Assembly (NCBI GenBank): GCA_016219925.1
Contig: JACRJU010000010.1
Span: 32,147-96,146 of the forward strand
Source: Candidatus Uhrbacteria bacterium
Lineage (GTDB): Bacteria > Patescibacteriota > Patescibacteriia > UBA9934 > GWF2-40-263
Reading direction: 5' to 3'
DNA: 64,000 nt
Shown here: positions 9,468 through 58,822 of the stretch, one piece after another
Numbering within the stretch: the stretch's first letter is position 1
Layout of the letters: every line of letters starts with the position of its first letter
Position numbers and translations under genes: made by a program
The notes under the pieces: model-generated
Databases searched by the model: none
Seen by the model: the letters and a program-made list of their open reading frames with translations, nothing else
What the model was told of the DNA's origin: nothing

Positions 9468-10094
9468 ATGCGACGAGCTTTTGCCTTTCTGCTCATCACC
9501 CTTTCCGTTGCGGCTTTGCCGTTTGCTGGATTGGCGTACTCGAGCAACATTTGCAAAGGCCCGACCTGTGATGTCTCCGAGGTGGGACGATTTATGGAAG
9601 GGATTACGCGCGAATGTGGAAACCTGGGCAACTGCTCGATCAATGATATTTTGATGGTGTTTGCCAATGCAGGAAACTTCGCCGTCGGCATTGTGGGAGC
9701 GCTTGTGCTTCTCATGTATGTGATCGGGGGAATGTACATGCTTTCTTCAGCAGGATCTTCGGACCGAGTCGCAAAAGGAAAAAAATATCTCACCATCTCA
9801 ACAACGGGGCTCCTCATTGTCGTCTTTGCTTATATTGGCATTAAGACGCTCGAATCGGTTTTGAGAACAGCCGGAGGCGAGGGTGACTTCGTCGAGGCTT
9901 GCACCGAGTCAACGATCGGCCAGCCTTGCGGACCGTCCAAACAATGTTTTCAAGCTGATGGTGCGTCAAGTGTTTCCTGTATCTCAAACTGTGAAGCTTT
10001 TACTCCAGGGGCGAGTTGCAAAAATGCTTCAAATCCTGCATGTATTTCAGGATTATGCCCTGGAGAAGCCGTGTGTTGTCCTCCAACGCCTTAA
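9468..10094 (+). CDS. Pilin-like two-TM protein (TrbC/VirB2 or T4SS-pilin-like) with a Cys-rich C-terminal extension; paralog 1 of 6
   Basis: Signal peptide, then a hairpin core (GIVGALVLLMYVIGGMYMLSSAGSSDRVAKGKKYLTISTTGLLIVVFAYIG). The tail carries more than 10 Cys. Confidence 0.5.
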   Translation: MRRAFAFLLITLSVAALPFAGLAYSSNICKGPTCDVSEVGRFMEGITRECGNLGNCSINDILMVFANAGNFAVGIVGALVLLMYVIGGMYMLSSAGSSDRVAKGKKYLTISTTGLLIVVFAYIGIKTLESVLRTAGGEGDFVEACTESTIGQPCGPSKQCFQADGASSVSCISNCEAFTPGASCKNASNPACISGLCPGEAVCCPPTP

Positions 10095-10104
10095 TCCCAT
10101 TGCT

Positions 10105-10470
10105 ATGAAACTTTTTTTAAAACGATTAACTCTCCTTCTGTGGATTTGGTCCATGCCCCTTATGGCATTCGCCGCCGACCCGGCAGAAAAAAAATTGTTT
10201 AATCCTCTTGGAACTACGAGCATTCAAGCGGTGATCGCCCGGCTCATCAAAGCTTTGCTTGGACTTAGCGGAAGCATCGCCCTTCTGATGTTTGTGTGGG
10301 GAGGATTCTTGTGGCTTAGCTCTCGAGGGGAAACCAAACAAATCGAAAAAGGGAAAGAAACCATCAAATGGGCCACTTTCGGGCTCGTTATTATTTTTAC
10401 TGCCTACATTTTGGTTGGAGCAATCATTGGTGCGCTGATAAAAGGAACAGCTGTAGAGGCCCCAAGCTAG
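10105..10470 (+). CDS. Pilin-like two-TM protein, paralog 2 of 6
   Basis: Start ATG 10105 (MKLFLKRL signal peptide). Core is GSIALLMFVWGGFLWLSSRGETKQIEKGKETIKWATFGLVIIFTAYIL. Confidence 0.5.
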   Translation: MKLFLKRLTLLLWIWSMPLMAFAADPAEKKLFNPLGTTSIQAVIARLIKALLGLSGSIALLMFVWGGFLWLSSRGETKQIEKGKETIKWATFGLVIIFTAYILVGAIIGALIKGTAVEAPS

Positions 10471-10564
10471 CCGTGTGGATAAGCAGAGTTCTTTCTTCCC
10501 AAAAAAACGAGTAAAATACCTATAACCTTTCAATCATTTAACTTTTAAGGAGGCAACAATTTCT

Positions 10565-11023
10565 ATGACCATGGTACAGAAAAAATATCTCGGTTATGCG
10601 CTGGGAGCCGCCGTAGCCCTGCTCATTGCCGCGCCGATCGTGCTGGGAGGCGCACACAACGCTCTCGCTGCCCCCGGGCCACTTACAAAGGATGAGCTTT
10701 TCGGTGGCAAGGGTAAAACAGGCGATACATTTGCGGCAAATGCCGGACTTGGAAATGCGAACCTGATCGATACGATTTCTTCGATCATTCGCGTAGCTCT
10801 TGGTTTCCTCGGTGTGATTGCAGTGGTGATCATCCTGCTTGGTGGATTCAAGTGGATGACCTCGGGCGGAAACGATACCAAAGTTGGTGAGGCTAAAAAG
10901 CTCATCTTCGCAGGCATCATTGGATTGGTGATTGTGTTATCCGCATACGCGATCGCGAATTTCGTTATCGGCCAAATCGCGGGCGTCACCTCTAATCCTG
11001 TCCCTCCTGTCGGTGCTGGCTAA
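10565..11023 (+). CDS. Pilin-like two-TM protein, paralog 3 of 6
   Basis: AAGGAGG Shine-Dalgarno upstream. Core is GVIAVVIILLGGFKWMTSGGNDTKVGEAKKLIFAGIIGLVIVLSAYAI. Confidence 0.5.
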   Translation: MTMVQKKYLGYALGAAVALLIAAPIVLGGAHNALAAPGPLTKDELFGGKGKTGDTFAANAGLGNANLIDTISSIIRVALGFLGVIAVVIILLGGFKWMTSGGNDTKVGEAKKLIFAGIIGLVIVLSAYAIANFVIGQIAGVTSNPVPPVGAG

Positions 11024-11032
11024 TGACTCATG

Positions 11033-11063
11033 CCCCCATCCCCCATCTTTTGGATGGGGGTTT
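11033..11063 (+). terminator. Intrinsic terminator inside the pilin array
   Basis: CCCCCATCC / GGATGGGGG 9-bp stem followed by TTT. A second 10-bp hairpin (TTGCGTAAGC/GCTTACGCAA) lies at 11062-11099. Confidence 0.5.
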
Positions 11064-11105
11064 GCGTAAGCTGATGAGAGGATTCGTCTGCTTACGCAAA
11101 TATTT

Positions 11106-11504
11106 ATGCAACGTTTTTTCTTGCGCATCGGCGCTCCAGCGATCATCTTTCTTTTGAGCGCCCCGTCTGCTTTGGCAGAGTCCGAAGCGGCAAAAGCGCT
11201 AAAGGGCGGACTCACAGATACCGCCAAGTTGGCTGGCTACCAATCAACATCTTTGCCTGTCATCATTGGAAATGTCATCAAGGCTTTGTTGGGTGTGGTC
11301 GGTATTATTTTCCTTTTGATTACCATCTATGCCGGTATTATGTATATGACGGCCGCGGGAGATACCGGAAAAGTCGACAAAGCAAAAAAAATGCTCACGC
11401 AATCGCTTATTGGCCTGGTGATCATCATAGGCGCCTATGCCTTTGCCAATTTCGTTGTGACTCAACTGGCTGTAGCAACAACGGCGGCACCAGTAAAAAA
11501 ATAG
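11106..11504 (+). CDS. Pilin-like two-TM protein, paralog 4 of 6
   Basis: Core is GIIFLLITIYAGIMYMTAAGDTGKVDKAKKMLTQSLIGLVIIIGAYAF. Confidence 0.5.
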   Translation: MQRFFLRIGAPAIIFLLSAPSALAESEAAKALKGGLTDTAKLAGYQSTSLPVIIGNVIKALLGVVGIIFLLITIYAGIMYMTAAGDTGKVDKAKKMLTQSLIGLVIIIGAYAFANFVVTQLAVATTAAPVKK

Positions 11505-11505
11505 T

Positions 11506-11901
11506 ATGAAAACCTTTTCAAGATGGCTGCTCATCGGAATATTTGTCTTGCTTCCAGTTTCTGCCTGGGCCGGCCTTCTTGATTCGCAACTAAGTACCGT
11601 AGGCAGTCAATTAGGAAAAGACGGTGGGGTCCCAACGAGTCTCCCCGTATTTATCGGTGGACTCATTAATGTCGTTTTATCGGTTCTTGGTCTCGTCTTT
11701 CTCGTTCTCATCGTGTATGCTGGATACATGTGGATGACGGCTTCAGGCGATTCAACCAAAGTTGATAAGGCCAAAAAACTTATTGGACAGGCTCTCATCG
11801 GCATGATCATTGTTATCGCTTCCTATGCGATCAGCGCGTTCGTGATCGACCGAATTTCAGGCGCAATTACGGTAGCGCCGGCGGCAGCCCCCACAAAATA
11901 A
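11506..11901 (+). CDS. Pilin-like two-TM protein, paralog 5 of 6
   Basis: Starts 1 nt after the paralog 4 stop. Core is GLVFLVLIVYAGYMWMTASGDSTKVDKAKKLIGQALIGMIIVIASYAI. Confidence 0.5.
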   Translation: MKTFSRWLLIGIFVLLPVSAWAGLLDSQLSTVGSQLGKDGGVPTSLPVFIGGLINVVLSVLGLVFLVLIVYAGYMWMTASGDSTKVDKAKKLIGQALIGMIIVIASYAISAFVIDRISGAITVAPAAAPTK

Positions 11902-11923
11902 CTTTCTTGAATCTTAATTATCT

Positions 11924-12316
11924 ATGAAAAATCTCTACTACACTTTCAGCGCCTGGATTTCCGTCTTGGGCCTGTCGCTTTTGCCGGCAAGCGCCATGGC
12001 TCAACTTAAACCATCAACAGATGCGGCGAGTGATCTTGGTAAGATCGGCAAGAAACTCGGCAACGAGACTCCAAACGATCTTCCAAACCTCATTGGCGGA
12101 CTCATCAACATGTTCCTTTCGATTCTCGGCATCGTCTTTGTGGTGCTGGTGATCTATGCCGGATACCTTTGGATGACGGCATCTGGCGACGCTACTAAAG
12201 TTGATAAAGCCAAAAAACTGCTTGGCCAGGCCATCATTGGAATCATCATTATTGTGGCGGCCTACGCGATCAGCACGTTCGTTATTAATAGGATCGTCGG
12301 AGCGGTTAAACCGTAG
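11924..12316 (+). CDS. Pilin-like two-TM protein, paralog 6 of 6
   Basis: Core is GIVFVVLVIYAGYLWMTASGDATKVDKAKKLLGQAIIGIIIIVAAYAI. Confidence 0.5.
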   Translation: MKNLYYTFSAWISVLGLSLLPASAMAQLKPSTDAASDLGKIGKKLGNETPNDLPNLIGGLINMFLSILGIVFVVLVIYAGYLWMTASGDATKVDKAKKLLGQAIIGIIIIVAAYAISTFVINRIVGAVKP

Positions 12317-12320
12317 ATTT

Positions 12321-12356
12321 AAAAAAGGCAGAGCCGCGAGGCTCTGTTTTTATTTT
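12321..12356 (+). terminator. Intrinsic terminator of the pilin operon
   Basis: CAGAGCC-gcga-GGCTCTG stem followed by TTTTTATTTT, with an A-tract upstream. Confidence 0.7.
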
Positions 12357-12410
12357 GAAAATAAACATCCCCTGACCGACTCCACGTGAGGTGGATATCG
12401 ACCAGGGGAT
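12357..12410 (-). terminator. Terminator-like hairpin closing high-GC cassette A
   Basis: Outer stem ATCCCCTG/CAGGGGAT and inner stem TCCAC/GTGGA (12367-12410). It lies 4 nt after the stop of the 309-aa gene and is followed on the minus strand by a T-rich run. Confidence 0.45.
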
Positions 12411-12414
12411 AGGA

Positions 12415-13344
12415 TCAGCGCTTCCACCCGTTAGTGGCGTGGGTGATGCGCCGATCAAGGCTCTCGACGCGGTCGAGTTCGACCCGGACCGCGTTGCCCC
12501 ACAGAGTCTGGGGCGGCAGGCCGGGGATCTCGACCAGACTGCCGGTCGGAGCCAGGTAGATGATCTCGATGCGGTCGCGTGGGCCGACCGCCGAGATATA
12601 GAGCTCGTCGTAGGCGGCCGGGGCGACCGCGCTGTACGGGGTGCGGTCCGGACGACCGTCCCCATCGAGATCGGCGTAGACCGTCTCGATCGAGCCATCC
12701 GCATTGCCGATCGGGATGGCAACCCCGTTGCGCTTCACGAGAACCCGCGAGAATTGGGGGTTTCGGTGGGTGTGCCAGCTGACCCCACTGGCAAGCCCGA
12801 AGACTTGCAAGTAGGGGCCAACCACCTCGAAGGTCGTGGCGGCGTATGCCCCTGGGGTCGGGATGACCCTGTAGGGCGCGCCACCGACCATCATCGTGGA
12901 CGGTGGTAGGCCTGCGGGCGGACGGTGGTAGGCCTGCGGCTCGGCTGGTTGAGCCTTGCCGTCCTTCGCCTTCCGATCGCGGAGCGTCCGAAGACGCGCC
13001 TTGATCTGCTGCCTGGCTGTGCCAGCGGCAGGCAGCTCCGGCTGCTTGGCGTCCGGCACTGCCTGCTGGGACGCGAGCTTGGCTTTGGTCGCCTCGAGCT
13101 CCTGACGGAGCCGATCGACTTCGGCCTTGAGCCCGCTCTCGCCGGCTTTGAGCCGCGCCTCCAGGATCTTCACGTTCTGATCCTGGATGCACAGCAGTTG
13201 CTTGAGGCGGGCACTCGAGTCGGTTCCGGCGTAGCGGGCCTCGCAGAATGCGACGGCCTGCTTCGCTTCCTTCGACTCTTCAGCGTGCAGGGTGGCGGGG
13301 ACGAACAGGAACAGGGCGGCCGCGATGGCCATTTCGAACTTCAT
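12415..13344 (-). CDS. High-GC cassette A, gene 2: secreted coiled-coil protein with a beta-rich C-terminal domain carrying a DxDxDG loop
   Basis: Signal peptide MKFEMAIAAALFLFVPATLHA-EE. Heptad-like region LEARLKAGESGLKAEVDRLRQELEATKAKL. Contains DLDGDGRPD. AAGGAGA Shine-Dalgarno 5 nt upstream. Codons are almost all G/C-ending. Confidence 0.6.
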   Translation of the reverse strand: MKFEMAIAAALFLFVPATLHAEESKEAKQAVAFCEARYAGTDSSARLKQLLCIQDQNVKILEARLKAGESGLKAEVDRLRQELEATKAKLASQQAVPDAKQPELPAAGTARQQIKARLRTLRDRKAKDGKAQPAEPQAYHRPPAGLPPSTMMVGGAPYRVIPTPGAYAATTFEVVGPYLQVFGLASGVSWHTHRNPQFSRVLVKRNGVAIPIGNADGSIETVYADLDGDGRPDRTPYSAVAPAAYDELYISAVGPRDRIEIIYLAPTGSLVEIPGLPPQTLWGNAVRVELDRVESLDRRITHATNGWKR

Positions 13345-13419
13345 GGATTTCTCCTTGTGGTCGGACGTGCCGACCGTCTTCGTCTTTCGAGACGGCCGGC
13401 ACGGACCACCCGAGCCGAC

Positions 13420-14043
13420 CTACTTGCGGTGAACTCGGAGGAGCTCGTTGAGGTCGCGGCGGTTGCACGCCGCTTCCTCTGCGGGGTTGGCGGGCGGGCG
13501 ACCACCAGGGCACTGGCTCGTGCTCGCGGGCGCGAGCGCTTGCGGAGGTGGCGGGCCGTAGTAACCCGGGGCGACCGCTTCACCGAGCGGCGGGAGGTAG
13601 CCTCTGGCTCCTGCCCGCCATCCAGCCTCGATCATGGTCGTCTCCTGGCTGGCTCCCGGATAGTAGACAGCCTGACCGTACGGCCCGTAGCCGCCGGCGG
13701 CGTAGGGGTAGGCCCCCATGCCGTACGGCCCGTAAGCGCCGTAGTAGCCCGTGTACCCGGAGGTCACCTGACCTCCGCGGGTGCTCACCTGCGTGGGCAC
13801 CCCCTTGTCAACCGACGCGCGGGCCGTTGCGGCCGCGCGCTCGGCCGCATCGCCGTCATGACGCGTACGCTCGAGCTGGTCGGCGGCGGCAAGGAGCGCT
13901 GCCGCTCCCCCGGTGGTGGCCAGATCCTGGTGGACCTGGACCGAACCGATGACCCGACCGCTTGCGTCGGTGAGGTCGCGCTTGAGCGCGACGCTCGCGC
14001 ATCCCGTGAGGGCGGCGAGCACGATGGCGAGGATGGTCTTCAT
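13420..14043 (-). CDS. High-GC cassette A, gene 1: lipoprotein with a Gly/Tyr/Pro-rich low-complexity region
   Basis: MKTILAIVLAALTGC lipobox. GGAG lies 6 nt before ATG 14043 (alternative ATG at 14055). Contains GYTGYYGAYGPYGMGAYPYAAGGYGPYG. Confidence 0.6.
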   Translation of the reverse strand: MKTILAIVLAALTGCASVALKRDLTDASGRVIGSVQVHQDLATTGGAAALLAAADQLERTRHDGDAAERAAATARASVDKGVPTQVSTRGGQVTSGYTGYYGAYGPYGMGAYPYAAGGYGPYGQAVYYPGASQETTMIEAGWRAGARGYLPPLGEAVAPGYYGPPPPQALAPASTSQCPGGRPPANPAEEAACNRRDLNELLRVHRK

Positions 14044-14125
14044 CTGCTTCTCCATGTCGACTCGCCTGCGGCTGCCGACTCAATTGCCCTGAAAAGGACG
14101 GTTTGTCCCAATTTGGGAACGTAGA

Positions 14126-14154
14126 AATATACCATAAAATTGCCTTTTTGTCAA
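14126..14154 (-). promoter_or_regulatory. Sigma70-type promoter for cassette A
   Basis: Minus strand reads TTGACA (14154-14149), N17, TATATT (14131-14126). It sits in low-GC sequence and shares the TTGACAAAA dialect. Confidence 0.5.
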
Positions 14155-14162
14155 TAAATCCA

Positions 14163-14188
14163 ACGAAAAAACGCCCTTTTAGGACGTT
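14163..14188 (-). terminator. Intrinsic terminator of the ATP-grasp gene
   Basis: Minus strand reads AACGTCC-taaaa-GGGCGTT followed by TTTTT. Confidence 0.5.
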
Positions 14189-14210
14189 TCCTCAAACATT
14201 TAAAAACGGG

Positions 14211-15497
14211 CTAACGCAAGTATCCCCAATTATGCAAAAGATCCGAATCTCTCTCCCAACGGTCCCCGATATCCGTGCGGTAATACATATTAGGCACCAT
14301 GACGTTTTGCACACGGTTATACACCTGTTGTTGGGCGGCCTTCATCGTGGCCCCAGTCCCGGCAACCGTCATCACCGCCCCGGCATGCCCAGCCACAACC
14401 CACTGACCGTTTAACACTTTCACCTCCTCAATATGAATCCCATCAAGCGTGTTGCGGCGCAGATAAATCGCGGCATCTTTTGAGTACGTTTCAAATGCTT
14501 TATGGTCATCAAACGGATATGGCGGCGTGCGCAAACGGACTCCGACCTGGAACCCTTTTTTTGTTTTGATCGCAAAGCTCTCACGATTGGCTAGCCGATA
14601 GAGGAGCTCGGACATGGGCATGAGCAGTCCCTCGTGCTGGATCGAAATCGTCGGGTAACCAAAACGGCTTGTGAACTCAAGCGGATAAATGCCGTTCCCG
14701 TTGACGATACAGTTAAGATCGAAGTAGCCAACATATCCCTCGCGCGAAAGCGTCTCTTCCATTTTTAGAAGCGTGGCGTTGAACAATCGGTTGGGCTCGG
14801 ACCAATACATGGACGTTCCCATTTCCCCAGTCGAGATCCCGAGGTTCCCAGGAAATAATTTTTTGTGCTCAAAGTTGATGTTAATCGGGGACAAAAACCG
14901 ACTGCCATTAAAGAACGCTCCAACGGCCACTTCCACACCGGAAACGTGTTTTTGTAGTTGAAACACTTTGATCTTTTTAAGCCACACCCGCTTATACGCC
15001 TCCATAATGCCAATGACATCACTGCCGTCGTCTTCCGTACCGACAAATAGAAGGCGTTTGAGGTTGGCCGCCTCGCCGCTTGGCTTGAACACATAGCGTC
15101 CGGGATGCGCGCGGACATATGCAATGGCCTCATCAAAATCCGCGAAGGTTTGATAAGACAAAATCGGAATGCCATGCTTTTTAAGCTCTTCTTGACCAAA
15201 ACCGCGATCATCTTCGAGCTGGTCGGTGTAAGCCGTCCCTCCGATCACCGCTTTGCCGGTGCGGCGCAGACGATCCGCTTTGGCTCCCAAGCCAAGCACA
15301 TCGTCAAACACAACCACATCTGCCCAATCCACCTCCTTCTTCCAATCCTCTACCTTTTCGATGAGCCCATCGCCGACGTCCTGTGACGCATCAGAGTCAA
15401 CGTACATCTTCACGCGGTGACCCTCACGACTCACCTGCCAGGCTACATCGACACACAAGGCATCGAGTGTGACAAACAAAAAATTTTTCGAGTCCAT
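14211..15497 (-). CDS. ATP-grasp enzyme, PurD (phosphoribosylamine--glycine ligase)-like
   Basis: 428 aa. FEHKKLFPGNLGISTGEMGTSMYW aligns by eye with the PurD region [23 protein letters not shown]. The ATP-grasp block is YVFKPSGEAANLKRLLFV. No other pur genes occur in the window. Confidence 0.5.
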   Translation of the reverse strand: MDSKNFLFVTLDALCVDVAWQVSREGHRVKMYVDSDASQDVGDGLIEKVEDWKKEVDWADVVVFDDVLGLGAKADRLRRTGKAVIGGTAYTDQLEDDRGFGQEELKKHGIPILSYQTFADFDEAIAYVRAHPGRYVFKPSGEAANLKRLLFVGTEDDGSDVIGIMEAYKRVWLKKIKVFQLQKHVSGVEVAVGAFFNGSRFLSPININFEHKKLFPGNLGISTGEMGTSMYWSEPNRLFNATLLKMEETLSREGYVGYFDLNCIVNGNGIYPLEFTSRFGYPTISIQHEGLLMPMSELLYRLANRESFAIKTKKGFQVGVRLRTPPYPFDDHKAFETYSKDAAIYLRRNTLDGIHIEEVKVLNGQWVVAGHAGAVMTVAGTGATMKAAQQQVYNRVQNVMVPNMYYRTDIGDRWERDSDLLHNWGYLR

Positions 15498-15508: not shown

Positions 15509-15536
15509 ATTATAGACGCATGAAAATGGAAGTCAA
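15509..15536 (-). promoter_or_regulatory. Near-consensus promoter of the ATP-grasp gene, effectively leaderless
   Basis: Minus strand reads TTGACT (15536-15531), N16, TATAAT (15514-15509). Only 11 nt separate the -10 from ATG 15497, and there is no Shine-Dalgarno. Confidence 0.55.
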
Positions 15537-15542
15537 AAAATT

Positions 15543-15591
15543 CTGTAAAAGAAAACGACGGCAGCAATCCTTGGGAAGGAAAGCTGCCGTC
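15543..15591 (-). terminator. Intrinsic terminator of high-GC cassette B
   Basis: Perfect 9-bp stem GACGGCAGC/GCTGCCGTC, then GTTTTCTTTT on the minus strand. It begins 8 nt after the stop codon. Confidence 0.7.
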
Positions 15592-15599
15592 AGAAGCGG

Positions 15600-17600
15600 C
15601 TACTTGCAGCCGAAGGCCTGACGACCTTCATAGCTAAGCGCCGCGCAGTCGACTCCGTTGGTGTGCGTGTGCGGCTTGGAAGCCGAACGCGCGCTGGACG
15701 AAGTCGGGGGCGTCGTGGCGAAGGGGTCCATCGTGTGGTGACCCACGAACCACGGAACGCTCACCGCGACCATGAGTGCGCAGAGGAAGACCGCGAGGTG
15801 GCCCACCAGGGGGTTACTCCCTTGAGTCACGTTCAGGATCGATCCTGACTGCACCCGTGTCTGTGCGAGCCGGCGCACGAGCCAGTACCCGGGCAGGTAC
15901 ACGAGCGTGAAGAGGACCGCGCTCGCAACCCACTGATGAGTCCCGAGGAAGCTGAGGCTTGCACCCCAGGCCGCGACAGTCGCGCCCCAGACGGCTTGCG
16001 GCCATCCGTGACGGATCATCCAGTCTGCGGCGATGATCCCGATCGTCACCAGCCACCCGTACTGCGCGCCCCGAAGAGCAAGCAGTTGGGCCTTGGCCGG
16101 CGCGCCCGCGACCTTGAAGCCCATCCCGATGCACACGCCGACGAAGGCGAGGCCCAGGATGACGACGCGTGCGCTGAGCGACACACCGACCTCCGGGATG
16201 AGGCCCAGAGCGATCAGGTACGCCGGCATCAGCATGAAGGTGAACCTCCAGCCGAATTCGGCGAGCCAATCGGCGGGCCACCCGAGCACACTGACAACCA
16301 GGGGGTGGAGCAGACGCTGCCAGATCCGCAGCGTAAAAAACATGATGATCAGCACCGTCGCGCAGATGATCGCGCGCAGGCTGTGGTACATGCTCGGGGC
16401 ACTGAAGAGGCTCGAGAGCATCCACCAGAACGCCGTGAGGAACATCACCACGGTCGCCAGGTTGAACACCACGATCCCGACCGCCGAGCCGTAGAGCAGG
16501 GCTTTGAGGGTCCCGCTCATGGCGCCGCGGTTGTGCCAGGCGCTCGAAGCGCCGCGCAGGGCCTTGTGCCAGAGCGTGAGCTCCGCACCCAAGGCCGTGT
16601 CGAACGCGGCGATGATGTCGTCGAGATCTTCGGGGTTGAACCGGTCCTCGGGGGTCGCACGCGGATTGTAGTACTCCGCGAGCGTCCTGAGAAACGGCAC
16701 GCCCTTCTTGTCGACGACGTCCTTGACGATGTCCTCGCGCAGGGCGTACTGCAGGGCCGTTCCCTGCCGCACGCTGCGGCTGATGAGCAGGAAGAAGCGC
16801 CGAACCTCGGGTCCGACCGCCTCCCACCACTCGGCGGGCTTCCTCAGAAGACCCTCGAGGATCTTGAGCTCTACGGCGCTGACGCGCTGGGTATCCCCCA
16901 TCTGCGCGATCGCTTCCGCGAGCTTCAGGACCTCGTGCGGGAAGGACTCGGCCGGCACACGCTCGGTGCGAGGCTGTTGGCCCTTGCCACCGCCGACCTG
17001 CTTGGTCGTGGCTTTGTGGGTGTCATCCCAGACGCTCTTGTAGAGCGCCCAGGTCGGATCCAGGATGACGGGCACCTGGTCGGCACCCACCCGAATCTTG
17101 CCGTCAGAGTCCCGGGCCGGAACGAAGATCTTACCCGGAACGAGCCGGCTGACAACAACCCAGTCAAGAGTCTGGTTGGCATCAGCGTCTGCGACGCCGG
17201 GGTCGGAGCGGGCCGCGTCGACCTCGCGATCGATCTGGCTCGCGGCATCCGCGTACCCGGTGAACACGCCCAACAGGGCGTGTGGGCCAACCTCCTTGAG
17301 GAGGAGCTTGGCCTCGCGAACGACCGGACGGGTGTCGCCCGGAAGAATCCGCTCGACGAAGTCGCTCTTCTTGAGCAAGGCCGCGACGGCCGAGCCCGCG
17401 AGTGGGAGGGTGAACCCGGGCATGGTGCGCGCCAGGGCCATGACCGGCCCGGCCGCTCCGAAGATGCCCTTGAGCGACCGCTTGGCGATCGCCTTGCCGG
17501 ACTCTCCAGCACCCGCACCCTCGGTGAGCTCGCGCTCGAGGTGCTGGTGCACGGCCTGTTCGGCGGCCTCTTCGGCCATCAATCGAAGAAACTCGTTCAT
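15600..17600 (-). CDS. High-GC cassette B: 666-aa protein with a soluble N-terminal half (about 350 aa) and a polytopic C-terminal half (roughly 8-10 hydrophobic segments); function unknown
   Basis: AGGAG lies 6 nt before ATG 17600. Strong G/C-ending codon bias. Five long shadow ORFs overlap it, as expected from stop-codon depletion. The C-terminal tail has two Cys (VDCAALSYEGRQAFGCK). Confidence 0.6.
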   Translation of the reverse strand: MNEFLRLMAEEAAEQAVHQHLERELTEGAGAGESGKAIAKRSLKGIFGAAGPVMALARTMPGFTLPLAGSAVAALLKKSDFVERILPGDTRPVVREAKLLLKEVGPHALLGVFTGYADAASQIDREVDAARSDPGVADADANQTLDWVVVSRLVPGKIFVPARDSDGKIRVGADQVPVILDPTWALYKSVWDDTHKATTKQVGGGKGQQPRTERVPAESFPHEVLKLAEAIAQMGDTQRVSAVELKILEGLLRKPAEWWEAVGPEVRRFFLLISRSVRQGTALQYALREDIVKDVVDKKGVPFLRTLAEYYNPRATPEDRFNPEDLDDIIAAFDTALGAELTLWHKALRGASSAWHNRGAMSGTLKALLYGSAVGIVVFNLATVVMFLTAFWWMLSSLFSAPSMYHSLRAIICATVLIIMFFTLRIWQRLLHPLVVSVLGWPADWLAEFGWRFTFMLMPAYLIALGLIPEVGVSLSARVVILGLAFVGVCIGMGFKVAGAPAKAQLLALRGAQYGWLVTIGIIAADWMIRHGWPQAVWGATVAAWGASLSFLGTHQWVASAVLFTLVYLPGYWLVRRLAQTRVQSGSILNVTQGSNPLVGHLAVFLCALMVAVSVPWFVGHHTMDPFATTPPTSSSARSASKPHTHTNGVDCAALSYEGRQAFGCK

Positions 17601-17704
17601 CTCTATCTCCTGTGCGGCTCTTGGCCGCGCAATGGGTTTGGAACACGTGAAAAGGGCGAAAAAAACCTTTTCTCCAATGCGCGTTGCCGCACACAGAAGG
17701 GACT

Positions 17705-17733
17705 TTTATATCATATTTCGGCCGTTTTGTCAA
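17705..17733 (-). promoter_or_regulatory. Promoter of cassette B with its -35 box in a hairpin loop
   Basis: Minus strand reads TTGACA (17733-17728), N17, TATAAA (17710-17705). The -35 sits in the hairpin GGCCGTTGACAAAACGGCC (17738-17720). Confidence 0.55.
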
Positions 17734-17787
17734 CGGCCAATGACTCATTTTTCTTAAATTCCTTCATAAGTCACCCAGTGGGTAATA

Positions 17788-17922
17788 AGAGATTTGTGAC
17801 CTTGTCTTCGGGCCGACGGACTCATCGCCGTCGTTCCCTCCGACATGGTCACAAATCTCTTTAGGGCTGTGAAGAATAAACGAGTCACAGCCAGTGGGGA
17901 GGCGGCCATGGGGCCCCCACTG
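17788..17922. other. Three adjacent perfect hairpins; unclassified structured element
   Basis: Stems are AGAGATTTGTGACC/GGTCACAAATCTCT (17788-17801 with 17847-17860, inner CGACGG/CCGTCG), GGCTGTGA/TCACAGCC (17865-17872 with 17885-17892) and CAGTGGGG/CCCCACTG (17892-17899 with 17915-17922). Confidence 0.35.
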
Positions 17923-31153: not shown

Positions 31154-32290
31154 TTATGAACGAATAGGCATGAGCACATACCGGTACGCCTGTGTGCTCT
31201 GTGCGGGACTGATAAGACAGGGGTTGGCCCCATCAATCATTTCAAAGACCACCTGATCTGAAACGATCGCTTGCAGGCCATCGAGGAGATAGCGATAATT
31301 TACCGAAACTGTGTTTGGCTGTCCAGAAATTTCTGCGCCGCAAGAGCTGATGTTATCCCCACGGGTTGCGTCTGTCGCCTGAACATGGAGAGCCTCCGCG
31401 GTGGGTTCAAAAGCCAAAGTGACGTCAAATAAGCCATTTTTTGAGAATAAACTAGCGGTTTTTACAGCTTTTATAAAGTCTTCTTTATCCAAAATAGCCC
31501 GTGTTGAAAACTGTTTTGGGATAATCTGCTGGTAATCAGGATAATTTTCATCAATAACCCGTGAAATAAGTTCAACCGGACCAAAAATAAATACCGCCTG
31601 ACTTTGCGAAAGCTGTAAGCTGACAGTTGTTGGTAGTTCAACATCATCTTTGAAAACGGAAAGAACGCGTAGAACCTCCGAAAGCGTCTTGGCTGGGACA
31701 ACGACACTTCTTTCTTGTCCTGGACGATCCAGAAGCGTTATGGTGGCTTCTGAGAGCCTGTAGGAGTCGGTTGCAACCAGCTTCAAACGCCCCTCACTCT
31801 CAAATGAAGAAAAATGCATGAGCACACCCGTGAGTTCTGGACGTGATTCGTTTGTTGCTACCGCAAAGAGGACTTGAGATAAGGCGGCTTTTAAATCACC
31901 AACAGGAATCCGATAGATCTCCTCCCCATTCACTTTTGGCACAAGAGGGAATTCAGAAGCAGAAAGTCCGTTGATTTTTGTTTTGTGGTTTCCGCACTGC
32001 AAACGAATATTATCATCATCCGTATCAAGACGAATTGTTTCGCTTGGAAGGAGCGAAACGTAATCATAAAATAGTTTTGATGGGACGGTGTGCTCCCCCG
32101 GTTCATCAACTTTGCCTCTCACAACACAATTCACTGCAATTTCTAAATTTGTCGACGTAAATTTTATTGTTCCCCCCTCCGCTTTAACAAGAACATTTTG
32201 TAAAATCGGTAAATTAACGTTCTTCGTCATGAGATGGCTTGTGATGCTCAACCCTTGATGGAGATTCTCTTTCGTACAAGACAGTTTCAT
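31154..32290 (-). CDS. dnaN: DNA polymerase III beta sliding clamp
   Basis: MKLSCTKENLHQGLSITSHL...NLPILQNVLVKAEGGTIKFTSTNLE. 378 aa, directly downstream of dnaA. Confidence 0.9.
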   Translation of the reverse strand: MKLSCTKENLHQGLSITSHLMTKNVNLPILQNVLVKAEGGTIKFTSTNLEIAVNCVVRGKVDEPGEHTVPSKLFYDYVSLLPSETIRLDTDDDNIRLQCGNHKTKINGLSASEFPLVPKVNGEEIYRIPVGDLKAALSQVLFAVATNESRPELTGVLMHFSSFESEGRLKLVATDSYRLSEATITLLDRPGQERSVVVPAKTLSEVLRVLSVFKDDVELPTTVSLQLSQSQAVFIFGPVELISRVIDENYPDYQQIIPKQFSTRAILDKEDFIKAVKTASLFSKNGLFDVTLAFEPTAEALHVQATDATRGDNISSCGAEISGQPNTVSVNYRYLLDGLQAIVSDQVVFEMIDGANPCLISPAQSTQAYRYVLMPIRS

Positions 32291-32535
32291 ATTTTTGTTC
32301 TGTATTATTGTTTTTACAAAAGAGATTAATAAATAAAGTAATAGTAGTAAGGGGTGTGGATGAAGTGGAAAACAGAAATTTTTAGCTTAATTGAGTGATG
32401 TTTTAGCTTATGGATTTGTGGATGAACTTAGGTGTTTGGTTGTGGAGTCTTGGTGAATATTTTTGAACACTTTATTTATTCACTCTTTCCCCCACCTCTT
32501 TCACAGAGGGTTACCCACGAGAAGTGCACTGTATA
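32291..32535. promoter_or_regulatory. Candidate oriC (dnaA-dnaN spacer)
   Basis: About 60 nt of AT-rich tract at 32291-32350. DnaA-box variants TGTGGATGA (32355-32363 and 32417-32425), TGTGGAGTC (32441-32449) and TTACCCACG (32511-32519). Further 8/9 boxes lie upstream of dnaA at 33949-33957 and 34000-34008. Confidence 0.45.
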
Positions 32536-33927
32536 TTAATAGGTGTAGAGTTTTTGTTTGATCAGTTCAAGATCGTGTTGAAGTTTTTCATCCGCCACAA
32601 GACAATTACAGATTTTTTCATAGGCGTGCATAGCTGTTGTGTGGTCTCGTCCTCCAAGTTCTGTTCCAATAGATGGATAACTCGCTTTCATTTCCTCACG
32701 CATGAGATACATGATAATTTGTCTTGGAAACGCCAGCCGTTTTTGGCGGCTCGCTCCAAGCAGGTCAACGATTTGGACATCGAAATATCCAGCGACTGTC
32801 TGAATAAGCTGTTTGGGGGTAACGGTTTTTCTTGTGTTTGAAGGAGTGAAGCTTGAGAGGATTGGTTTTACAGAATCAAGAGTTGCGCGGGTGTTTTTGA
32901 ATTGATGAAACGCGATAATTTTGTTAAGGGCTCCTTCAAGTTCTCGAACGTTCGTTTGGACAACACTTGCGATGTGATGAACGATGTCGTGTTCGAGTGC
33001 GTAAGTTTTTTCTCGGCACTTGGTTTCTAAAATTGCTACACGTGTTTCAAAATCTGGAGAGCCCACGTCGGCCATCATTCCCTGCTCAAATCTTGAGATA
33101 AGCCGGCTTTCAAGTTGGGGGATGGCTTTTGGTGGACGATCTGAAGAGATCACGATCTGCTTGTTATTTTGGTAGAGCTGGTTGAATGTGTGAAAAAACT
33201 CTTCCTGCGTTCCCTCTTTTCCAGTCATAAACTGGATGTCGTCAACCAATAGAACATCAACCGTTCGGTAACGATTTTTAAACTCAACCATCCGCCCCCC
33301 CTTAAGCGCCCCAATGAAATCATTGGTAAAACGCTCGCTTGTGACATATAAAATGCGCGTTTGTGGGCTTTTTCGTATAAGTTCGTTGCCAACCGCTTGT
33401 AAAAGGTGGGTTTTTCCAAGGCCGACACCACCATAGATAAACAAGGGGTTGTAGACGCCTCCTGGCTGTGCACACACAGCTTGAGCGGCGGCGTGGGCCA
33501 GCTCATTTTGTTTGCCAACAATGAACGTTCCAAAACAGTACTTTCCATTAAGAGAAAATTCCCCTGTGCGAATTTCTTGAGGTTCGTGACTGGTTCTGGG
33601 TTGGTACCCGTCTGATGTTGGTGGTTCGTTCTGCGAAGACCCATCGAACAGCGGAATAATTTGTTGAGGAGCTTGTTGGCGCGCTTCCACGCGGTACGTC
33701 AACTGTTTGATTGTTCCGTTCGTGAGATCCTGCAAAGACTGCATGATTTCTTTTGAATACTTCTTTTCTAGCCAGGCTTTTGTAAAAAGATTCGGAACTC
33801 CAACGATAATGGCATGATCACGCACTTCTGAAATAAAAGTTTGTTTAAACCAGGTGGTGAAATTTGCTTTACTCAATGACAATTCGAGTTCGCCAAGAAC
33901 CGCTTGCCAGAGTTCGTTGGTGTTCAT
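32536..33927 (-). CDS. dnaA: Chromosomal replication initiator DnaA
   Basis: Start at ATG 33927 (MNTNELWQAVLGELE). Walker A GGVGLGKTHLL. C-terminal HTH IGTELGGRDHTTAMHAYEKI. Confidence 0.95.
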   Translation of the reverse strand: MNTNELWQAVLGELELSLSKANFTTWFKQTFISEVRDHAIIVGVPNLFTKAWLEKKYSKEIMQSLQDLTNGTIKQLTYRVEARQQAPQQIIPLFDGSSQNEPPTSDGYQPRTSHEPQEIRTGEFSLNGKYCFGTFIVGKQNELAHAAAQAVCAQPGGVYNPLFIYGGVGLGKTHLLQAVGNELIRKSPQTRILYVTSERFTNDFIGALKGGRMVEFKNRYRTVDVLLVDDIQFMTGKEGTQEEFFHTFNQLYQNNKQIVISSDRPPKAIPQLESRLISRFEQGMMADVGSPDFETRVAILETKCREKTYALEHDIVHHIASVVQTNVRELEGALNKIIAFHQFKNTRATLDSVKPILSSFTPSNTRKTVTPKQLIQTVAGYFDVQIVDLLGASRQKRLAFPRQIIMYLMREEMKASYPSIGTELGGRDHTTAMHAYEKICNCLVADEKLQHDLELIKQKLYTY

Positions 33928-34043
33928 ACGGGGCGTAGTGTAGACTACTTGTCCACATGTGAGCAAGTGCGTGTTTCGTGTACAAAGGGGTTGATGTTTT
34001 GTGGGTAACTTGTTAATATCTTTGTGCCTAATGTTTTACCCCT

Positions 34044-43138: not shown

Positions 43139-43651
43139 TTACACGATAGGAACGGTTTTGTCAATATTTTTTTTGCGTGAAGTCAAAAGCAGAAGGGCGA
43201 TAACTCCCAGGACAATCACCAAATCAGAGAAGTTGATGGCACTGCGGCCAAAGAAAATAAGATAATCAACTGTGAAGCCGTAAATAAGGCGATCAAAAAG
43301 GTTTCCCGCCGCTCCGATAAGGATCATGAGACAAGCAAAAGCTACATGAGGCTTTGTGAGAATCGTTTTGCTCACGACGCGAATCAACACAAGACCGATA
43401 ACAATGCTGACGAGCACCACAAGTTCATGACGAAACGGGAGATCGAAGGCGAGTCCGAAGTTTTTATGAACCGCAAAATCAATCAGATGAGGTGAGGTCA
43501 AAAAAGTCTCTTCTGGAAAATATAAGAGTGCCTTTGCTTTGAGCCACTCATCAAGAATGACTGTCAGGGCGATCGGAAAGAGCAAAAAATAAATGTCGAA
43601 TTTTGAACGTTTCACACCTCTTGTGTCAGGGTTTTCTTGCATTGGATGCAA
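43139..43651 (-). CDS. lspA: Lipoprotein signal peptidase II
   Basis: NFGLAF, GAAGNLFDR and VDY motifs, with four hydrophobic segments. Confidence 0.75.
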   Translation of the reverse strand: MHPMQENPDTRGVKRSKFDIYFLLFPIALTVILDEWLKAKALLYFPEETFLTSPHLIDFAVHKNFGLAFDLPFRHELVVLVSIVIGLVLIRVVSKTILTKPHVAFACLMILIGAAGNLFDRLIYGFTVDYLIFFGRSAINFSDLVIVLGVIALLLLTSRKKNIDKTVPIV

Positions 43652-54245: not shown

Positions 54246-55226
54246 ATGGCACACGTGACCCATCGCGATCTGCTCTTTCCCATCGTCGTGAAGTTCTGGG
54301 GGGTCCGCGGATCCTTCCCGACCAGCGACGTCCGGATCGGCGGGCACACGACATGCCTGACGCTCCAGTTCCCCGACCAACTCATCATCTTCGACACGGG
54401 TTCGGGGATGATCGACCTTGGCAACCATCTGCTCGAGCCGGCGCTCGTGCCTGGAACGACCCTCAAAGACATCGAGGTGTTCACCAAGGTCTGGCTCGGC
54501 CAGACTGGCAACAAGCCCGAGGATCTCGGGCGCGCTCTGCAGGAGCGGTTCCAGGGCAAGAACGGCGGGGTCAACGCGACCGTGATCCACAGCCACGTCC
54601 ACAAGGATCACCTCGACGGGCTCACGGCGTTCAAGCCCGTGTTCCGTCCGGACACGGAGCTCACCTTCATCGGCTCGCGCCACAATGATCTGACGATCGA
54701 GCAGGTCATGGAGCGCTTCGTGTTCACCCCGCCGGTGTTTCCGGTGCCCTGGAAGGTCCTGGGGTCGAGGCGCACCATGCGCGAGATCGCTCCGTCGGGC
54801 GACACCTTCACGATCCCCTGCGCGGTCGGCGACGACATCCGTGTGCGGATGCTGCCGATGAACCACCCCAACCAAGCCTACGGGTACCGGTTCGAGTGGG
54901 GCGGTCGTGTGATCGCGGTCACGCTCGACCACGAGCACGGTCACGACTTCGACCGCAACGTCGTCGAGCTCGCGGACAACGCCGACCTGTGGATCACCGA
55001 GGCGCAGTACACCGATGCGCAGTACGCGCGGTGCAAGGGCTTCGGCCACATCAGCGAGACCGCGGCCGCCGCGCACGCCAAGGCGGCCAAGCCCCGGCTC
55101 GTCTACACGACCCACCACGATCCGGACGCCGGCTTCGACGATGTCCAGCAGATCGCGCGCACCATCCAGGAGTTCTCGGGCGTCGAAGCTCGGTACGCCT
55201 GGCAGGGTAGCGAGGTCCACGTCTGA
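54246..55226 (+). CDS. High-GC cassette D: MBL-fold metallo-hydrolase (Lactamase_B_2-like)
   Basis: GGAGG lies 5 nt before the ATG. HSHVHKDHLDG (HxHxDH), a downstream NHP, and TTHHDP. The antisense 329-aa ORF is repetitive low-complexity. Confidence 0.75.
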   Translation: MAHVTHRDLLFPIVVKFWGVRGSFPTSDVRIGGHTTCLTLQFPDQLIIFDTGSGMIDLGNHLLEPALVPGTTLKDIEVFTKVWLGQTGNKPEDLGRALQERFQGKNGGVNATVIHSHVHKDHLDGLTAFKPVFRPDTELTFIGSRHNDLTIEQVMERFVFTPPVFPVPWKVLGSRRTMREIAPSGDTFTIPCAVGDDIRVRMLPMNHPNQAYGYRFEWGGRVIAVTLDHEHGHDFDRNVVELADNADLWITEAQYTDAQYARCKGFGHISETAAAAHAKAAKPRLVYTTHHDPDAGFDDVQQIARTIQEFSGVEARYAWQGSEVHV

Positions 55227-57249: not shown

Positions 57250-57282
57250 CACAAAACCCCCGGCTTTTGCCTGGGGTTTTGT
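57249..57282 (+). terminator. Terminator hairpin after tRNA-His
   Basis: ACAAAACCCC / GGGGTTTTGT 10-bp stem. Confidence 0.55.
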
Positions 57283-57413
57283 GTGAGAGATAAGAATCGA
57301 ACCCGTAACGACGATCAACAACACGGGTACGATGCTTGAAGTGAGCGAGCGGAGAGGCCGAGCGGAGCTCGGACTATCCCGAGCGAGCGAGAGCAATATG
57401 GGCGCCAGCCCAT

Positions 57414-57434
57414 ATTCCCGTTGGCCGCCCCACA
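57414..57434 (+). repeat. Exact 21-nt direct repeat of the tRNA-His 3' end (T-loop to CCA plus 2 nt)
   Basis: ATTCCCGTTGGCCGCCCCACA occurs at 57231-57251 inside the tRNA and again at 57414-57434. The second copy is embedded in a 63-nt near-perfect palindrome at 57417-57479. Confidence 0.85.
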
Positions 57435-57522
57435 AAATAGACCCCAGCATGCTGGGGTCTATTTTGTTTGGCCAACGGGAGGTGAAGGGGGCATGTCTCT
57501 TTTCTCTTCATTCTATCCACAC

Positions 57523-57551: not shown

Positions 57552-57694
57552 TCTGCGGGTCTGCTTGTGAGGTGGCTATTTCAGCCAAAATTGCAGGCAT
57601 CCCGGCTGGCCGGATAGCCAGAGCCAGGCCAAACCGGATCGGTTTCCGGAAAGGCCAAACACCAGAAGCCCCAATGGGGCAACAGAGGCTACAG

Positions 57695-58732: not shown

Positions 58733-58776
58733 GCCGCCCCCCCACAACGTCAGCGCACACTCGCGCTGACACGCTC

Positions 58777-58822
58777 GCACCGCTTCTCGGAGCTCCTCCT
58801 CCAAGCGGTGCGTTTTTATTTT
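58777..58822 (+). terminator. Intrinsic terminator of cassette E
   Basis: GCACCGCTT / AAGCGGTGC stem followed by GTTTTTATTTT. Preceded by a second hairpin, GTCAGCGC/GCGCTGAC, at 58749-58770. Confidence 0.7.

Follow-up and report, generated by a model that had tools for sequence, protein, structure and literature searches.

We describe a conserved GC-rich gene module in a window of 64,000 nucleotides (nt) from a bacterium of the Candidatus Uhrbacteria, which belong to the candidate phyla radiation (CPR) (GenBank: GCA_016219925.1, contig JACRJU010000010.1, positions 32,147 to 96,146). Positions given below are those of the window, unless a locus is named. The subject are two neighbouring genes on the minus strand, gene B (13420-14055), which codes for a lipoprotein, and gene C (12415-13344), which codes for a secreted protein. 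Together with gene A (15600-17600, minus strand), coding for a membrane protein of 666 amino acids (aa), they form a three-gene module which is specific to Uhrbacteria-type genomes and vertically inherited at one chromosomal site. Their high G+C content was not imported; it is a gene-specific bias towards G and C that is maintained in place, about 1 logit above each genomic background. We read B and C as a resident Uhrbacteria operon in this module, with a bias kept in place by selection on the mRNA and with products that probably belong to a surface complex, and assign this reading a probability of about 0.6. In the literature searched, we came across neither the module nor conserved genes of high GC content in CPR genomes.

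A three-gene module at one chromosomal site

The proteins of the window are annotated as hypothetical proteins of Candidatus Uhrbacteria. In word-based searches of 5.8 billion proteins, C had only 5 homologs, B had 11 and A had 9, and an exhaustive HMMER search of 1.84 billion representative proteins with the C-terminal domain of C returned 69 proteins. Nearly all of these 69 are 270-350 aa long and carry the domain C-terminally. Long repeat proteins make up a few of them and have weak matches in several stretches, some of them only over the calcium loop motif described below. A preliminary description of the B-C pair had proposed high-GC phyla such as Actinomycetota and Myxococcota as a place to look for it, and no donor-type homologs are among the 69 relatives. 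For three distant relatives of C the DNA was fetched, and each of them has a B-C pair.

We compared about 17 homologous loci from NCBI, ENA, JGI and Logan assemblies of many samples, which are named by handles such as L003 where they have to be told apart. B and C are adjacent in every locus examined, including very distant pairs on short contigs, so the suspicion that their homologs might never be neighbours elsewhere did not come true. Where the flank suffices, the gene order is NifS, NifU, ferredoxin, Pyr_redox_2, A, in some cases a purD-like gene, B and C, followed on the opposite strand by 5-8 T4SS_pilin genes (T4SS: type IV secretion system), an SBP_bac_1 protein and an NTP_transferase. 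Six loci (L007, L008, L009, L016, L018 and L023) have A directly before B, and only in the window, L001, L010 and L011 are the two split by the purD-like gene, which has its own promoter and terminator. In the window, the pilin genes are six VirB2/TrbC-like paralogs on the plus strand (9468-12316, the last gene ending at 12316), convergent with the B-C operon. The adjacency to this array had been noticed before in the window and holds wherever the flank suffices; even in L023, the most distant locus with usable flanks, the module adjoins pilins. The proposal of a self-contained unit holds with respect to the promoter, leader and terminators of B-C, but the pair is only two-thirds of the A-B-C module.

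Neither mobility genes nor tRNAs or direct repeats were seen at the module borders in the list of open reading frames (ORFs) of the window and in domain scans, and the tRNAs nearest to the module are 6.7 kb and 22.3 kb away. The window contains no paralogous copies of module genes, and silent donor cassettes for gene conversion were rejected on this ground.

The sharp change in composition could in principle come from an assembly chimera, in which a high-GC fragment was misjoined into a CPR contig. The probability of this is negligible, as the same arrangement is present in independent NCBI, ENA, JGI and Logan assemblies of many samples and species, and the GC content steps up or down at the borders of transcription units whose promoters and terminators are of the host type. 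Both junctions, at 12.36 kb and 14.1 kb, had earlier been named as possible weak points and are supported by the independent assemblies as well as by synteny across species.

Two loci, L011 (CAYMBX010000022.1) and L015 (CAYHRJ010000050.1), are labelled as uncultured Gammaproteobacteria, yet their gene order is that of Uhrbacteria, and the identity of their flank proteins to those of the window is 64-90%. Judging by these sequences, the bin or the label is probably wrong.

A GC excess that follows each background

The B-C unit has a GC content of 0.67-0.71 in a genome of about 0.49. The share of G and C at the third position of codons (GC3) is 0.82 in B and C and 0.85 in A, compared to about 0.5 in the flanking genes. 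GC content changes within one 100-nt step at about 12400 and at about 14090. The GC-rich stretch starts at the leader stem-loop of the operon, covers the B-C spacer and ends at the terminator; the promoters and the A-B spacer (170-400 nt, GC 0.41-0.43) are AT-rich. The codon shift is uniform towards G/C endings, with AAG, GAG and CAG included, and the amino acid composition is shifted towards Ala, Gly, Pro and Arg, a trait of high-GC organisms.

In each of the 15 loci whose flanks are usable, which have backgrounds of 0.25-0.60, the GC3 of the island exceeds that of the flanks by 0.14 to 0.33, with a logit offset of 0.64-1.5 and a median of about 1.1. When the window is compared with its nearest relatives, the divergence at four-fold sites (p4) is 0.57-0.66 in the island, compared to 0.62-0.67 for random pairing, and the four-fold sites of the flanks are similarly near saturation. 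Over the same span, the four-fold GC of the flanks shifted by about 0.3 between lineages, and the offset was kept in all of them. For the closest pair, L003 and L007, the synonymous divergence (dS) is 0.94-0.96 in B and C and 0.59-0.86 in the flanks.

One explanation to be weighed against these numbers is a recent horizontal import from a high-GC donor, for example Actinomycetota or Myxococcota, with a composition that has not yet adjusted. The jump in GC content relative to the genome would fit such an event, as would the codon usage, which is like that of high-GC bacteria. A recent import is nevertheless extremely unlikely: orthologs are found at the same site in about 17 Uhrbacteria-type loci, the dS of L003 and L007 matches that of the flanks, and the GC content of the island follows each background, without a single donor value. 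Furthermore, the promoter and the leader are conserved along with the genes, the exhaustive search gave no donor-type homologs and the borders lack the mobility genes, tRNAs and direct repeats looked for there.

Alternatively, the ancestor of the Uhrbacteria might have imported the genes long ago, and the GC excess would be a relic that decays by slow passive amelioration. This would agree with the confinement of the three families to the lineage, with no relatives elsewhere, and with the shift in amino acid composition. We consider it very unlikely, as the four-fold sites of the island are saturated and the offset persists everywhere, even though the four-fold GC of the flanks has moved by about 0.3. 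In addition, a metallo-beta-lactamase (MBL)-fold gene and a gene for a 353-aa protein, described below, share a conserved excess at other sites, down to 24% identity, and a relic would leave the excess folding of the mRNAs unexplained. The saturated synonymous turnover, together with an excess that tracks each background, excludes recent import and assembly error and argues strongly against a passively decaying relic. Thus, from the earlier claim of a foreign composition, the atypical GC content and codon usage remain and the imported DNA does not, since GC3 is raised in every relative at the same site.

The same picture is obtained by comparison with horizontally acquired islands and their amelioration (Lawrence and Ochman 1997, as cited in PMC12455944). 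The module resembles these islands in its atypical composition and codon usage over a few kilobases and in its sharp edges. It differs from them in being present at the same site in all relatives, with a constant offset to the background and saturated synonymous sites, and in having neither mobility genes nor a donor. Its distribution is not patchy, as it was found in every related locus with a sufficient flank.

Translational selection for high expression was also considered as a cause of the codon bias and rejected, because rpsT (GC3 0.59) and trigger factor (0.49) are at background GC3 and because the shift includes AAG, GAG and CAG. The H+-pyrophosphatase gene has a GC3 of 0.51.

The ratio of nonsynonymous to synonymous divergence (dN/dS) is 0.12-0.22 for B and C and 0.09 for A, compared to 0.03-0.08 for the housekeeping flanks and 0.07-0.21 for the pilins, and the module proteins evolve 3-5 times faster than the housekeeping flanks. 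These values mark B and C as functional genes that evolve fast, as do the pilins.

Excess folding of the module mRNAs

To compare native mRNAs with a background, we used shuffles of the third codon positions that keep the protein, the codon usage and all dinucleotides, and summed the minimum free energies over 150-nt windows. Native A (z = -7.05) and native C (z = -5.6) are 9-13% more stable than their shuffles. The deviation of B is weaker than that of A and C (z = -2.4 to -3.8, with 11-13% higher stability at z = -3.8), and the MBL-fold gene and the 353-aa gene reach -2.4 and -2.8. Four control genes of the window gave values from +1.7 to -0.5, and nine genes of the high-GC phage phiC31 gave values from +2.1 to -3.6 and are at most 5.5% more stable. 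When the shuffles were confined to blocks of 50 codons, z was -6.1 for A and -5.25 for C. The sense strand shows a larger folding excess than the antisense strand, and the excess recurs in orthologs of three divergent lineages, namely in A of L001 and L023 and in B of L003 and L023. An artefact of the shuffling was considered and rejected, as the excess survives dinucleotide-keeping and local-block shuffles and is absent from mid-GC and high-GC controls.

The folding excess, together with GC edges that match the transcript, suggests that selection acts on the transcript, and we infer that selection on mRNA structure is the most likely cause of the bias. What would be selected is mRNA that is GC-rich, heavily paired and hence long-lived or slowly scanned, and this would keep up the bias. 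Katz and Burge reportedly found in 2003 that bacterial coding regions are under selection for local mRNA secondary structure, and Mauger et al. are said to have described in 2019 a functional half-life of mRNAs that depends on their structure. The module genes are like such cases in that the native sequences fold above shuffles that keep protein and dinucleotides. They are unlike them in that the effect is large (9-13%, z up to -7), concerns a small conserved subset of genes and is coupled to a GC3 excess of 30 points in a mid-GC genome.

Signals and RNA structures of the B-C operon

Its signals mark B-C as a bicistronic operon that is predicted to be transcribed as one unit, with a promoter, a leader and terminators of its own. 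A near-consensus sigma-70-type promoter is followed, in this order, by the leader stem-loop, B, a hairpin without a U-tract, C and two terminators.

The promoter TTGACA-N17-(TG)G-TATATT (14126-14154, minus strand) agrees with the consensus at 11 of 12 positions and has a TG before the -10 element. It is the sole match to the full -35 plus extended -10 consensus in the whole window. A promoter with 10-11 of the 12 consensus positions lies upstream of gene B in all checked loci but two, very distant loci included; the exceptions are L013, where none was found in the 86-nt stretch examined, and L022, where none was recognised. The 5' leader of the transcript (14044-14125, minus strand) measures about 64 nt to the ATG at 14055 and about 76 nt to the ATG at 14043, and ortholog leaders are about 75 to 200 nt long.

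Directly before the ribosome-binding site of gene B, the leader contains a stem-loop of 26 nt, GAGTCGGCAGCC-N-GGCGAGTCGAC (14056-14081, minus strand). In this structure 98% of the aligned cells are paired, five of the nine pairs show compensatory changes, and none of 500 shuffles was equal. The covariance model finds one significant copy per locus in 12 loci, always just before gene B and including L011, which had been left out of model building. It finds no copy in L008 or in L012-L015, and the stem-loop is single-copy within the window. Rfam 15 has no match over the window at gathering thresholds and none at E-values up to 1 over 12300-14250.

In many ortholog leaders (L003, L007, L010, L011, L022, L023 and L025) we saw by eye a terminator-like hairpin, followed by a conserved U-rich motif of the CUUUUCUGUACCUUUCAA type, 5' of the conserved stem-loop. 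A reduced form of it is present in the window at 14084-14125. This hairpin could be a transcription attenuator.

B and C are separated by 75 nt (13345-13419, minus strand) with a GC-rich intercistronic hairpin that has no U-tract and is followed by AAGGAGA, the Shine-Dalgarno sequence of gene C. The spacer folds with -42 kcal/mol (z = -5.1), and none of 200 shuffles is as stable. A hairpin is found in 10 of 10 loci tested, with energies from -13.6 kcal/mol in the 31-nt spacer of L007 to -75 kcal/mol, and its base CGGCC is conserved, with covariation. In several loci, an extra inner palindromic insert with CCTTCGACAGGCTCAGG or a related sequence lies inside the hairpin (spacers L003 1437-1592, L016 3671-3820, L009 3213-3317 and L018 3138-3267), which may be a small repeated palindromic element placed in the hairpin loop.

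The operon is closed by a terminator, a GC-rich stem-loop (12367-12410, minus strand) followed by a U-tract, GUUUAUUUU. Beyond it lies a bidirectional intrinsic terminator with a 7-bp GC stem and T-runs on each strand (12329-12346, both strands), which is common to the convergent pilin operon. The fold of 12320-12414 has -41.7 kcal/mol (z = -7.3). In the preliminary description, the promoter at 14154-14126, a leader of about 60-70 nt, the intercistronic hairpin with AAGGAGA and the terminator hairpin at 12367-12410 had already been read from the window, and all four stand; the bidirectional terminator is added to them here.

By covariation and folding, the leader stem-loop and the B-C spacer hairpin appear to be two new conserved RNA structures, which suggests control after the start of transcription, perhaps of a fixed B:C ratio. 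Examples of intercistronic hairpins that stabilise or process a transcript and set protein ratios in an operon are the repetitive extragenic palindromic (REP) elements in malEFG and the hairpins of the puf operon. The B-C hairpin may be analogous to these, being a strong stem-loop without a U-tract in all of the tested loci. Unlike them, it has a family-specific sequence, and in L012 and L013 B and C abut without a hairpin.

The encoded proteins

The second ATG of the gene B ORF, at 14043, is the likelier start, as GGAG lies 8 nt upstream of it and the same product of 207 aa is called in an independent assembly (P0006). From this start the protein begins with MKTILAIVLAALTGC, followed by a Gly/Tyr/Pro-rich stretch. 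The N-terminus MKTILAIVLAALTG-C ends in the lipobox LTGC, whose Cys is invariant in 12 homologs, and positions -1 to -3 fit in 10 of the 12. The earlier lipoprotein call thus holds, with the probable start moved to 14043. According to hydropathy there is one hydrophobic segment, at residues 2-20. In the 12 homologs the N-terminal region and a C-terminal Cys pair, C182/C197, are conserved, and the centre between them is rich in Gly and Tyr and of low complexity. A signal peptidase II (Peptidase_A8, 43139-43651) and a DsbA-like oxidoreductase are also encoded in the window, which fits lipoprotein processing and extracytoplasmic disulfides.

Gene C, on the minus strand with its ATG at 13344, codes for a putative Sec-type secreted protein with an N-terminal hydrophobic segment, a Cys pair, long predicted helices, a Pro-rich linker and a C-terminal beta-rich domain, in this order. 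The N-terminus is MKFEMAIAAALFLFVPATLHA-EES, with a hydrophobic segment at residues 1-19; on inspection, homologs have ASA-Q or AYA-Q at the corresponding place, and a signal-peptide-like N-terminus is kept in 8 homologs. The prediction that both products are extracytoplasmic is supported by these conserved export signals, the lipobox Cys of B and the N-terminus of C, as read by eye. The beta domain contains YADLDGDGRPD, in line with the secreted protein with a C-terminal beta-rich domain and DLDGDGRPD that had been described, and the residues C34, C52, D225, G230 and P232 are invariant in the alignment. The loop D-L-D-G-D-G-R-P-D fits the DxDxDG calcium pattern, D-x-[DN]-x-[DN]-G plus a later acidic residue, and positions 227 and 229 are D or N in 8 homologs with one exception, P0002, which has R at 227. 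By motif this is a putative calcium loop of the DxDxDG type.

The AlphaFold2 model of C has a mean predicted local distance difference test score (pLDDT) of 64, and its sole confident part is the C-terminal domain (pLDDT 74-89). A heptad region, which had been named in the preliminary description, is putative and agrees with the long helices of this model. A Foldseek search against the PDB gave no match for C below an E-value of 0.02. FG-GAP_3 (Pfam: PF13517) reaches 15.9 bits compared to a cut-off of 26.9, and only for residues 209-233 over the DxDxDG loop; C thus stays below the Pfam gathering threshold of the FG-GAP/VCBS repeat family.

Gene A codes for a soluble N-terminal domain of 372 aa without a signal peptide, followed by 6 hydropathy peaks (7 helices in the model) and a C-terminal tail with a conserved Cys pair, DCxxLS...GC(P/K). 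Its AlphaFold2 model has a pLDDT of 63 and a predicted template modelling score of 0.29, and Foldseek found no match in the PDB below an E-value of 0.68. None of A, B and C has a match above threshold in Pfam, NCBIfam, PHROGs or PADLOC, and their profile matches to PDB sequences are at chance level only.

The putative promoter of gene A, TTGACA-N17-TATAAA (17705-17733, minus strand), resembles that of B, and a leader hairpin lies just before GGAGA-ATG (17612-17630, minus strand). Downstream of A an intrinsic terminator, GACGGCAGC...GCUGCCGUC followed by GUUUUCUUUU (15547-15591, minus strand), was read from the sequence, as was the promoter. The gene between A and B in the window is a purD-like ATP-grasp gene of ordinary composition with GARS_A and GARS_C domains (14211-15497, minus strand) and the promoter TTGACT-N16-TATAAT (15509-15536, minus strand).

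A probable surface complex beside a pilin array

A, B and C probably form a surface complex. In it, A would be the membrane platform, B a lipid-anchored Gly/Tyr-rich tether and C a calcium-binding distal domain on a helical stalk. Such a complex of three fast-evolving envelope proteins with Cys pairs would work together with the pilin array in contact with the host or a surface, a role that we can only infer.

The array of six ORFs was called by position. The two paralogs tested match T4SS_pilin, with 35.7 bits and with 25.4 bits compared to a cut-off of 26.6, and precomputed T4SS_pilin matches also exist for the arrays at the syntenic position in L003, L007 and L023. In Patescibacteria, 441 arrays of 2-11 VirB2-like pilin genes have been reported, and the pilin array is essential in Ca. 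Southlakia epibionticum of another CPR lineage (PMC12102498). The array of the window is like these arrays, with six divergent tandem T4SS_pilin/TrbC-like paralogs not far from dnaA. It differs in having A, B and C as neighbours, which are not mentioned in the available part of the survey (PMC12102498). T4SS-related genes near the origin have been reported in Patescibacteria (PMC12102498), and the placement of array and module, about 20 kb from dnaA, agrees with this. The window contains dnaN and dnaA (31154-33966, minus strand) and a low-GC stretch at about 32-35 kb, which makes a replication origin near 34-35 kb probable.

With respect to the secretion system itself, A, B and C match no Pfam T4SS family, and no virB4 is nearby in the window. 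In virB operons, VirB5 is a secreted minor pilin or adhesin, VirB6 a polytopic membrane protein and VirB7 a small, fast-evolving lipoprotein. The secreted helical C, the polytopic A and the lipoprotein B beside VirB2-type pilins may be seen as analogous to these three. No sequence or fold similarity to VirB5, VirB6 or VirB7 was found for A, B and C in Pfam, NCBIfam, PDB sequences and fold searches. Gene B is four times longer than VirB7, and gene C has, unlike VirB5, a beta domain and a calcium loop. CPR bacteria are expected to be monoderm, so there would be no outer-membrane role for a VirB7. VirB7 is described as evolving too fast for a hidden Markov model profile (PMC12102498).

Weighing the evidence

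Several points weigh against the reading of B and C as a resident operon with a selected bias and surface products. The number of shuffles was only 12-25 per gene, the structure signal is weak or absent in some orthologs (z = -0.1 for C of L003 and -2.0 for C of L001), and one control gene had a z of -2.7 and one phage gene a z of -3.6. The three module genes have a raised GC content at the first and second codon positions (GC1 and GC2), which the 353-aa gene does not, so no single cause fits neatly. The gene trees of A, B and C disagree in the clade of L003, L007, L016 and L018; this conflict indicates recombination and would be compatible with GC-biased gene conversion. As far as function is concerned, the export signals of B and C were read by eye and from hydropathy. 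As A, B and C have no sequence or fold relatives, the proposed function is drawn only from where the proteins are predicted to lie, from their domain features and from their neighbourhood. The scan of neighbouring genes detected no T4SS ATPase (VirB4) or VirB6. Moreover, the whole neighbourhood is syntenic in one lineage, so the adjacency to the pilins may be frozen gene order.

In the clade with the conflicting trees, four-fold sites are already 40-64% different. The A proteins of L007 and L016 are 89% identical, the B proteins of L003 and L016 81%, and the C proteins of L003 and L007 80%, with only 64% between the C proteins of L003 and L016. The ranking of the lineages thus differs by gene, which suggests recombination of alleles within the island.

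GC-biased gene conversion at a recombination hot spot of surface genes would make the folding a by-product of the composition. Besides the tree conflict, it could account for the raised GC1 and GC2 of the three genes and for proteins that evolve several times faster than the housekeeping flanks, and the constant offset, about 1 logit, agrees with any weak bias in fixation. We nevertheless regard gene conversion as an unlikely explanation, because the boundaries of the GC excess are those of the transcript, with an AT-rich A-B spacer inside the island, and because the pilin genes evolve equally fast, yet have an ordinary GC3 of 0.48-0.60. The cytoplasmic MBL-fold and 353-aa genes share the bias, the latter without a rise in GC1 and GC2, and a folding excess that depends on the arrangement and is stronger in the sense strand is not predicted by gene conversion.

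It is quite possible that the module has no link to the pilins, does another job in the envelope, for example in transport or in maintaining the wall or membrane, and adjoins the array only through frozen gene order. All genes from NifS to NTP_transferase are syntenic and not only the island and the pilins, the two operons are convergent and not co-transcribed, and the neighbouring genes scanned lack the T4SS ATPase and VirB6. The adjacency that holds up to L023 and the rates of B and C, which are similar to those of the pilins, are weak arguments for a link.

Other genes with raised GC3 in the window

Two genes outside the module belong to the same compositional class. These are the gene of the MBL-fold hydrolase (54246-55226, plus strand), with a GC3 of 0.90, and the gene of the hypothetical cytoplasmic protein of 353 aa (57671-58732, plus strand), with a GC3 of 0.94 and a four-fold-site GC of 0.98. 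Neither protein has an export signal. Their orthologs lie on syntenic contigs (L020 5809-6972 and 7746-8921; L021 5926-6948). The MBL-fold orthologs keep the excess, with 0.84-0.90 compared to about 0.68 in L020 and 0.68 compared to about 0.40 in L021, and the 353-aa ortholog in L020 has a GC3 of 0.94 as well, at a protein identity of only 24%. As the excess is kept in differing backgrounds, gene-specific GC bias is a more general trait of these genomes. Scanning metagenomes with the 353-aa protein gave no match.

In the window, 5 of about 55 genes (A, B, C, MBL-fold and 353-aa) have a GC3 of 25-45 points above the genome. A tentative and rather improbable extension is that these belong to a small conserved gene set written in a second 'dialect', whose hyper-structured mRNAs would be held by selection across order-level divergence and a wide range of genomic G+C contents, and which would form an RNA-level regulon. 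Its transcripts would last long or be translated slowly; episymbionts that grow slowly might, for example, stockpile them for contact with a host, and the B-C leader stem-loop would be a dedicated control element.

In the high-GC3 genes the antisense frame is open too. At the 353-aa locus, 57689-58804 is open on the minus strand and 57572-58732 on the plus strand, and a public gene call takes the ORF on the minus strand (363 aa; L026 252-1343, minus strand). The codon positions favour the plus strand, where GC3 is 0.94, compared to 0.97 for the minus-strand GC1. B, C and A, too, are overlain by long antisense shadow ORFs, for example at 12925-14124 and 15936-17864. Just after tRNA-His, between it and the promoter region of the 353-aa gene, the stretch 57250-57480 (plus strand) is GC-rich and non-coding, with several hairpins and short repeats of the GAGCGAGCG type.

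Implications for CPR genomes

The interest of these genes lies in the conserved gene-specific bias in GC3 and mRNA structure and in the leader element; the cassette alone is a typical set of lineage-specific unknowns. Detection of horizontal gene transfer by composition would flag A, B and C as foreign although they are inherited, which calls for caution in surveys of CPR genomes. In addition, this gene set allows selection on mRNA structure or lifetime to be compared with biased conversion across dozens of genomes with different backgrounds. Finally, the three fast-evolving envelope proteins, tied by their position to VirB2-like pilin arrays, are new candidates for the biology of epibionts.

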